Assembly: GCF_056712565.1 (NCBI RefSeq)
Contig: NZ_CM160072.1
Reading direction: 5' to 3' (one strand)
DNA length: 64,000 bases
Below are positions 33,710 through 34,089 of this stretch, in pieces (position 1 is the first letter of the stretch; the number at the start of each line of letters is the position of its first letter). The notes beneath the pieces were generated by a model. That model had not been told where the DNA came from and ran no database searches. It saw nothing but the letters and a program-made list of their open reading frames with translations. A program made the translations under genes and the position numbers.

Positions 33710-34089
33710 AACAACCTCTCTTATAATTATGGGTATTCTACGGAAACAATATACCGTGGTGAAGCTAATTTACTCGATTGCTGCGATGACTACCTCCGGG
33801 GGACAAACCTTATGTAAATACTATGGTCCTGCGGTGATGATTTGTATGTGATACACCGCAACATTTCGAGATATTCATACGGCATCTAATACTGATTTAA
33901 TTCTGGTTAAAATACAGACAGATAACAAGATGAATATTCTTAATGTTTACGTTAAAAATGTTTAATGTTATTTAATAGTTGTTAATTTGAATACTTCGAT
34001 AATGTTATATTTCCTGATAATCATTTGCAGGCAAAATGTTTTCACCTTTAAATGAGTATTTATTCTCATAAATCGAAAAAGGATTCATT

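Follow-up and report, generated by a model that had tools for sequence, protein, structure and literature searches.

AT-rich DNA upstream of yffB in Escherichia coli as a probable promoter region bound by H-NS

Closest described systems and the locus

The closest described counterparts of the DNA upstream of yffB are AT-rich regulatory regions bound by the nucleoid protein H-NS, sigma-70 promoters that use an extended -10 element and no -35 element, and the fimbrial regions controlled by PapB, FocB and TosR (pap, foc, tos). The high-affinity nucleation motif of H-NS is reportedly TCGATAAATT, a 10-mer attributed to Lang et al. 2007. Two genome-wide studies have already placed the locus among H-NS targets, at spacer or gene resolution and not base resolution: genomic SELEX identified the spacer between ypfM and yffB as an H-NS site in vitro (Shimada et al. 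2014, PMC3946193), and in vivo ChAP-seq reported yffB as H-NS-bound, with narQ, dapE and ypfH unbound (Higashi et al. 2016, PMC4720273 S2 Table). The latter study also classed yffB as not horizontally acquired (HTG = x) and concluded in general that sequence divergence is faster in regulatory spacers bound by H-NS (Higashi et al. 2016, PMC4720273). The PapB-family protein TosR, for which binding to AT-rich DNA and interplay with H-NS are predicted, lowered yffB 5-fold (log2FC -2.4, FDR 4e-7) when overproduced in the UPEC strain CFT073, which placed the gene among the most repressed (PMC5956150).

The window analysed here, meaning the whole stretch of 64 kb, comes from E. coli. Over bases 33550-34450 its sequence shows 100% identity with the type strain ATCC 11775, and this segment was matched in 5,425 of 5,426 complete E. 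coli genomes; the AT-rich tract at 33880-34089 is present in 5,424 of the 5,426, with no feature annotated under it among the genomes listed. Gene coordinates were taken from the annotation of K-12 and ATCC 11775, which puts the tract in the 380-bp divergent spacer between ypfM and yffB, as the 210 bp nearest to yffB.

30438-33551, + strand: acrD (annotation)
33650-33709, - strand: ypfM coding sequence, 19 aa (annotation)
33880-34089, strand not applicable: AT-rich tract, 24.8% GC, yffB-proximal part of the 380-bp ypfM-yffB spacer
34090-34446, + strand: yffB coding sequence, an ArsC/Spx-family reductase, first gene of yffB-dapE-ypfN
34450-35577, + strand: dapE (annotation)

An earlier note on this DNA had singled out the tract for its AT-richness and its reiterated AATGTT words, and had suggested intrinsically curved DNA or a binding array for a nucleoid protein or a regulator. 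The tract is an ordinary and largely known H-NS-bound promoter region. In the reading that we consider likely, it comprises the promoter, the upstream region and the 5' UTR of yffB-dapE-ypfN within H-NS-bound, fast-evolving AT-rich DNA, and its AATGTT words form no operator array. The suggestion of nucleoid-protein binding stands, and had in fact been published already through the H-NS SELEX site and the ChAP-seq flag for yffB, while the main functional content of the tract, namely the yffB promoter and 5' UTR, had been missed.

Several observations concern the occurrence of the locus. Among 80 yffB loci collected from other Enterobacterales, the acrD-ypfM-yffB order and ypfM itself were retained almost everywhere. 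The match to the yffB region is split in two in genome NZ_OY754371.1, with an IS1-like transposase annotated under it, which suggests that an IS1 has inserted at yffB or close by; in genome NZ_CP073939.1 the match to the AT-rich tract is limited to its bases 118-210. The ypfM intergenic region has also been reported among host-informative polymorphic spacers (PMC11267920).

Conserved elements and the probable yffB promoter

Two alignments were used to locate constraint in the region, one of 11 sequences from Escherichia and Citrobacter (A1) and one of 15 sequences from 10 genera, Salmonella included (A2). Just two constrained blocks were found upstream of yffB, TGTTATATT at 34003-34011 and the Shine-Dalgarno block AAGGATTCA at 34079-34087. 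The former was invariant in both alignments (11/11 in A1 and 15/15, across the 10 genera, in A2), and 26 of the 80 loci had the exact 9-mer upstream of the ATG, at a distance of 74-118 nt. Comparison across enterobacteria, which the earlier note had named as a check on its reading, showed the extended -10 and the Shine-Dalgarno block to be kept and the remaining tract, AATGTT copies 1, 2, 3 and 5 included, to be variable. Judging from these alignments, strong purifying selection acts on the extended -10 and the ribosome-binding site alone.

34003-34011, + strand: yffB extended -10, TG-t-TATATT, with its hexamer at 34006-34011 (from conservation and the position of the Salmonella TSS)
34016-34020, + strand: predicted yffB TSS (placed by the -10 hexamer and by comparison with the Salmonella TSS)
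34018-34089, + strand: predicted yffB 5' UTR, ~72 nt counted from the predicted TSS, poorly conserved except for the Shine-Dalgarno block
34079-34087, + strand: Shine-Dalgarno block AAGGATTCA, identical in 14/15 aligned sequences

The sequence TG-t-TATATT is a textbook extended -10. Here TG stands one base upstream of the 5/6 hexamer TATATT, whose second base is A and whose sixth is T, and no -35 was recognisable upstream of it, with no match better than 3/6; a generic -35/-10 scan returned the ypfM promoter only and missed this -35-less promoter. In Salmonella, whose locus (L083) was obtained via the YffB homologue, TATATT occupies 1391-1396 and the published TSS at -97 corresponds to 1404, 8 nt downstream of the hexamer and so within the 5-9 nt expected for an extended -10 promoter. 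That position comes from a Salmonella yffB::gfp fusion built from -97, with the TSS taken from ref. 54 of the paper (Fröhlich et al. 2016, PMC5137417); the YffB::GFP signal was too weak for flow cytometry, and the yffB 5' UTR fusion was repressed by the sRNA SdsR (PMC5137417). By homology, we infer that yffB transcription in E. coli would most likely start near 34016-34020, from the -35-less extended -10 TGTTATATT.

Genomic SELEX adds an RpoD holoenzyme site in the same spacer (Shimada et al. 2014, PMC3946193), that is, binding of RNA polymerase sigma-70 holoenzyme without activators, at spacer resolution and with the ypfM promoter lying in that spacer too. The yffB promoter resembles known -35-less extended -10 sigma-70 promoters in combining TGn and the 5/6 hexamer TATATT with a -35 of at most 3/6, in the start 8 nt downstream (in Salmonella), and in a spacer to which the holoenzyme binds without added factors. 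It differs in that published genome-wide work gave yffB another hexamer pair: the promoter predicted from sequence by Shimada et al. 2014 is TTCATA-16-TTTAAT at 33874-33901 (PMC3946193), whose -10 has no A at position 2 and which is unsupported by the Salmonella TSS. Our analysis would instead assign the yffB-dapE-ypfN promoter to the extended -10 at 34003-34011. As TTCATA-16-TTTAAT falls in sequence that Escherichia and Citrobacter have both conserved, it may represent a second, upstream yffB promoter.

A block of ~55 bp in the middle of the spacer, at 33840-33897 (TTTgTATGTGA..AC.GCAA.ATTT.GA.ATATTCATAC..ATCTA.TACT), is far better conserved in Escherichia, Citrobacter and Salmonella than the adjoining AT-rich tract. 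A minor start on the - strand maps to it, at 33838 with 2 reads (Kim et al. 2012, PMC3415461), and it includes the -35 of the yffB promoter predicted by Shimada et al.; it may act as a second promoter or as a site for a regulator.

For K-12, Kim et al. 2012 (PMC3415461) reported no + strand start between the ypfM TSS and the dapE TSS at 34180, which implies that under their conditions the yffB promoter had little or no activity; the parts of that paper covered here (PMC3415461) contain no Klebsiella yffB TSS. In the E. coli TSS datasets covered here, no start fell at 34016-34020. The dapE TSS at 2589359 corresponds to G34180 in the window and was mapped with 8 reads (Kim et al. 2012, PMC3415461), which is more reads than any start mapped for yffB in that study. 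The hexamers read from the sequence at this start are as follows.

34143-34180, + strand: internal dapE promoter TTGGCT-19-TATCGT, within yffB (hexamers read from the sequence)

Essential dapE appears to be insulated from a silenced yffB promoter by this internal promoter of its own.

H-NS occupancy, TosR and the AT-rich tract

The AT-richness described in the earlier note is confirmed, with the sequence that it quoted in place. No part of the 64 kb is richer in A+T at this scale: the GC content of the tract is 24.8%, values as low occur in just 0.07% of all 210-bp segments, and the exact minimum (23.3%) starts at 33887, inside the tract. Such extended A+T-rich DNA is what is expected of H-NS regions. 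The statement that no ORF is evident was also correct, as the overlapping ORFs have just 33 aa (33968-34069, - strand) and 54 aa (34052-34216, + strand); neither is conserved, and both were dropped because of indels and low identity there in relatives. A covariance-model scan of 33000-35000 against Rfam gave zero hits inside 33880-34089 at E up to 1, and its sole hits, STnc250 and a CsrC fragment at 33551-33670, fall on the ypfM 3' end and terminator.

The tract shares with AT-rich H-NS-bound regulatory regions its ~75% A+T over more than 200 bp, reported H-NS occupancy both in vitro and in vivo, low yffB expression, and a turnover faster than that of the flanking genes, with core promoter elements alone being kept. 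The faster divergence of H-NS-bound spacers (PMC4720273) fits our alignments of the yffB upstream region. Unlike such regions, yffB is a conserved chromosomal gene that is not flagged as horizontally transferred, and the tract lacks a good copy of the high-affinity H-NS 10-mer. The consensus TCGATAAATT finds only 2-mismatch matches in or beside the tract (33866 and 33996), and such matches are at chance level window-wide (73 vs 61 expected).

These features are consistent with repression of the yffB promoter by H-NS, as we infer from occupancy and expression. Mechanistically, H-NS and, in some strains, other binders of AT-rich DNA such as TosR would bind across ~200 bp of fast-evolving AT-rich DNA. 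The bound proteins would cover -60 to +20 and keep the yffB promoter weak or silent, and essential dapE would still be transcribed from its own promoter inside yffB.

A more specific possibility, compatible with the H-NS-bound promoter reading, is that the tract is a direct TosR operator in strains with the tos island, which we regard as unlikely.

33961-33989, + strand: TTTAATGTTATTTAATAGTTGTTAATTTG, putative TosR motif instance (PMC5956150 Table S2, in silico, p = 3e-8)

This instance lies at ~-57 to -29 from the predicted yffB TSS, covering the UP-element/-35 position, and includes AATGTT copy 3. It is the best-scoring instance of the AT-rich motif, is identical in CFT073 and the 64-kb window, and goes together with the log2FC of -2.4 for yffB on TosR induction in CFT073. 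However, MEME gives the motif as a degenerate A/T pattern of 29 nt, in silico only, and the effect of overproduction could be indirect or could arise via displacement or bridging of H-NS. Like the PapB/FocB/TosR-controlled regions, the yffB upstream DNA is AT-rich and also H-NS-bound; yffB responds to TosR overproduction alongside pap and foc genes, and its upstream DNA scores highly for this degenerate motif at one site. Unlike those regions, it has neither phase-variation machinery nor fimbrial context, and its responsive sequence is unconserved beyond E. coli and E. albertii.

It is also conceivable, and in our view quite improbable, that the AT-rich DNA acts mainly as curved DNA or as an UP element that stimulates the -35-less promoter via the RNA polymerase alpha subunits, and not as a silencer platform. 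A promoter without a -35 would suit such a role, as would the nearly pure A/T composition of -40 to -60 (33958-33978), the selection of the spacer by RNA polymerase holoenzyme alone in SELEX (PMC3946193), and a single predicted local bend of 23.5 degrees at ~34026 (99th percentile). Against this, the -40 to -60 segment is unconserved and Salmonella is much less AT-rich there, and the curvature peak lies downstream of the start site, not upstream. Predicted curvature of the tract as a whole was ordinary, its mean ranking at the 68th percentile when every 210-bp segment of the 64 kb is counted and at the 47th among those with GC <=35% (wedge model). The intrinsically curved DNA that had been suggested is not supported by this profile.

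AATGTT words and other candidate sites

The earlier count of four AATGTT words within ~60 bp was accurate (33942, 33957, 33964 and 34001, spanning 65 bp), and a fifth, previously unreported copy lies at 34035, giving five + strand copies in 99 bp; one further copy is found on the - strand, at 33860.

33942-33947, + strand: AATGTT copy 1, ~-76 to -71 from the predicted TSS, E. coli-specific
33957-33962, + strand: AATGTT copy 2, ~-61 to -56 from the predicted TSS, E. coli-specific
33964-33969, + strand: AATGTT copy 3, ~-54 to -49, shared with E. albertii; AATATT in K-12
34001-34006, + strand: AATGTT copy 4, overlapping the extended -10, with the TGTT part alone conserved
34035-34040, + strand: AATGTT copy 5, ~+18 to +23, in the predicted 5' UTR, E. 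coli-specific

Across 20,000 shuffles that preserved the dinucleotides of the 210 bp, the mean number of AATGTT words was 0.29 and five were never reached. The word had been picked after being seen, and the fair test is whether any hexamer reaches five copies; in the same shuffle set of the tract, a hexamer with at least five copies had P ~0.03, which is nominally significant and, since many intergenic regions were scanned, unremarkable. A repeat search found only matching words of 9-16 nt and, at 33924-33947, one imperfect palindrome that is not conserved.

Conservation of the individual copies is more informative about function. Copy 1 is identical in 2/11 sequences of A1 and 2/15 of A2, both E. 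coli, and four of the five copies are absent beyond E. coli and E. albertii. Outside E. coli, the 210 bp upstream of yffB hold 0-2 copies (80 Enterobacterales loci), and the Enterobacter group has TGTGTT at the position of copy 4. Taken copy by copy, these data indicate selection on TGnTATATT and not on AATGTT, so that only copy 4 matters among the five, owing to its overlap with the deeply conserved promoter element. The reiteration is therefore best explained by one functional overlap plus compositional drift, with no binding array. One copy would be part of the -10 element, and the others, which we take to be without function, would have arisen from lineage-specific substitutions in AT-rich DNA.

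Two readings that give the words a regulatory role were weighed against the drift explanation. According to one, which we consider very unlikely, the E. coli lineage recently gained AATGTT-type words upstream of an ancient extended -10, so that operators peculiar to this lineage came to be clustered there for a binder of AT-rich DNA (TosR/PapB-like or other). If this were true, expression of the thiol-reductase-like YffB and part of dapE transcription would be coupled to adhesin/virulence regulation in B2/UPEC strains. The other, to which we give even less credence, is the regulator binding array of the earlier note, with the copies serving as operators through which a sequence-specific regulator would control yffB/dapE. 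Such an array is favoured by the density of the word, since five copies within 99 bp is a count that shuffles never reach for it, by the positions of copies 2 and 3 at -61 to -49, and by the fact that copy 1 is the right arm of the imperfect palindrome. Against the array, four of the five copies are unconserved even within Escherichia (copies 1, 2 and 5 being restricted to E. coli), copy 3 is polymorphic within the species, the corresponding 210 bp of other genera hold as few copies as stated above, and the irregular spacings (15, 7, 37 and 34 bp) show no helical phasing, with a post-hoc P of just 0.03. In addition, we know of no E. coli regulator with an AATGTT half-site.

Least probable of all is a Fur operator, GATAATGTTATATTTCCTGATAATCATT at 33999-34026, that would overlap the -10 and the start site and make yffB iron-repressed: there are two GATAAT hexamers 18 bp apart, the best 19-mer match (GATAAT...GATAATCATT vs GATAATGATAATCATTATC) reaches 13/19 at 34010, and yffB was up 2.6-fold in an anaerobic Salmonella fur mutant (PMC3212961), but 13/19 is reached by 24% of composition-matched shuffles (P = 0.24), GATAATCATT is absent from Citrobacter and Salmonella, and the site predicted in the Salmonella paper lies elsewhere, in the 5' UTR (L083 1467-1484; PMC3212961). 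The candidate was rejected.

The best Fur-box-like sequence of the 64-kb window is GAGAATGATAATGATAATAAAATTA at 57681-57705, with overlapping 15/19 and 14/19 matches, and it adjoins very AT-rich stretches (57998-58315 and 58558-58908, ~25% GC). A Salmonella MarA ChIP-seq peak has been placed in the ypfM-yffB spacer, with a weak marbox ACCCAATTTGATAAA (p = 3.7e-5) that maps to ~1268-1282 of L083. The E. coli counterpart (~33888-33905) looks different by eye, and this site was not transferred to E. coli because its sequence is unconserved in that unscored comparison.

Overall, the locus illustrates a general pattern in which an H-NS-bound core-gene promoter is constrained only at its -10 and ribosome-binding site and the AT-rich surroundings drift. 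It follows from this pattern that repeated short words in AT-rich DNA should not be read as operators without conservation evidence. Beyond annotation, the significance of these results is small.

On the other side of the spacer, the ypfM promoter found by the -35/-10 scan is the same as that given by Shimada et al. 2014 (PMC3946193).

33735-33763, - strand: ypfM promoter TTCACC-17-TAGAAT (-35/-10 scan; same promoter in PMC3946193)

The published ypfM TSS at 2588907 (U00096.2), which is 33728 in the window and leaves a 5' UTR of 19 nt (Kim et al. 2012, PMC3415461), agrees with this promoter. The ypfM mRNA corresponds to Salmonella STnc250, which is Hfq-associated (PMC2515195), and the STnc250 match in Rfam at 33551-33670 was sub-threshold. 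The 19-aa ypfM ORF beside acrD shows 79-100% identity in nearly all Enterobacteriaceae loci examined (L003-L082). In the gap between acrD and ypfM (33556-33629), terminator-like hairpins stand back to back, one on the - strand (33591-33556) and two on the + strand (33602-33626 and 33614-33629).
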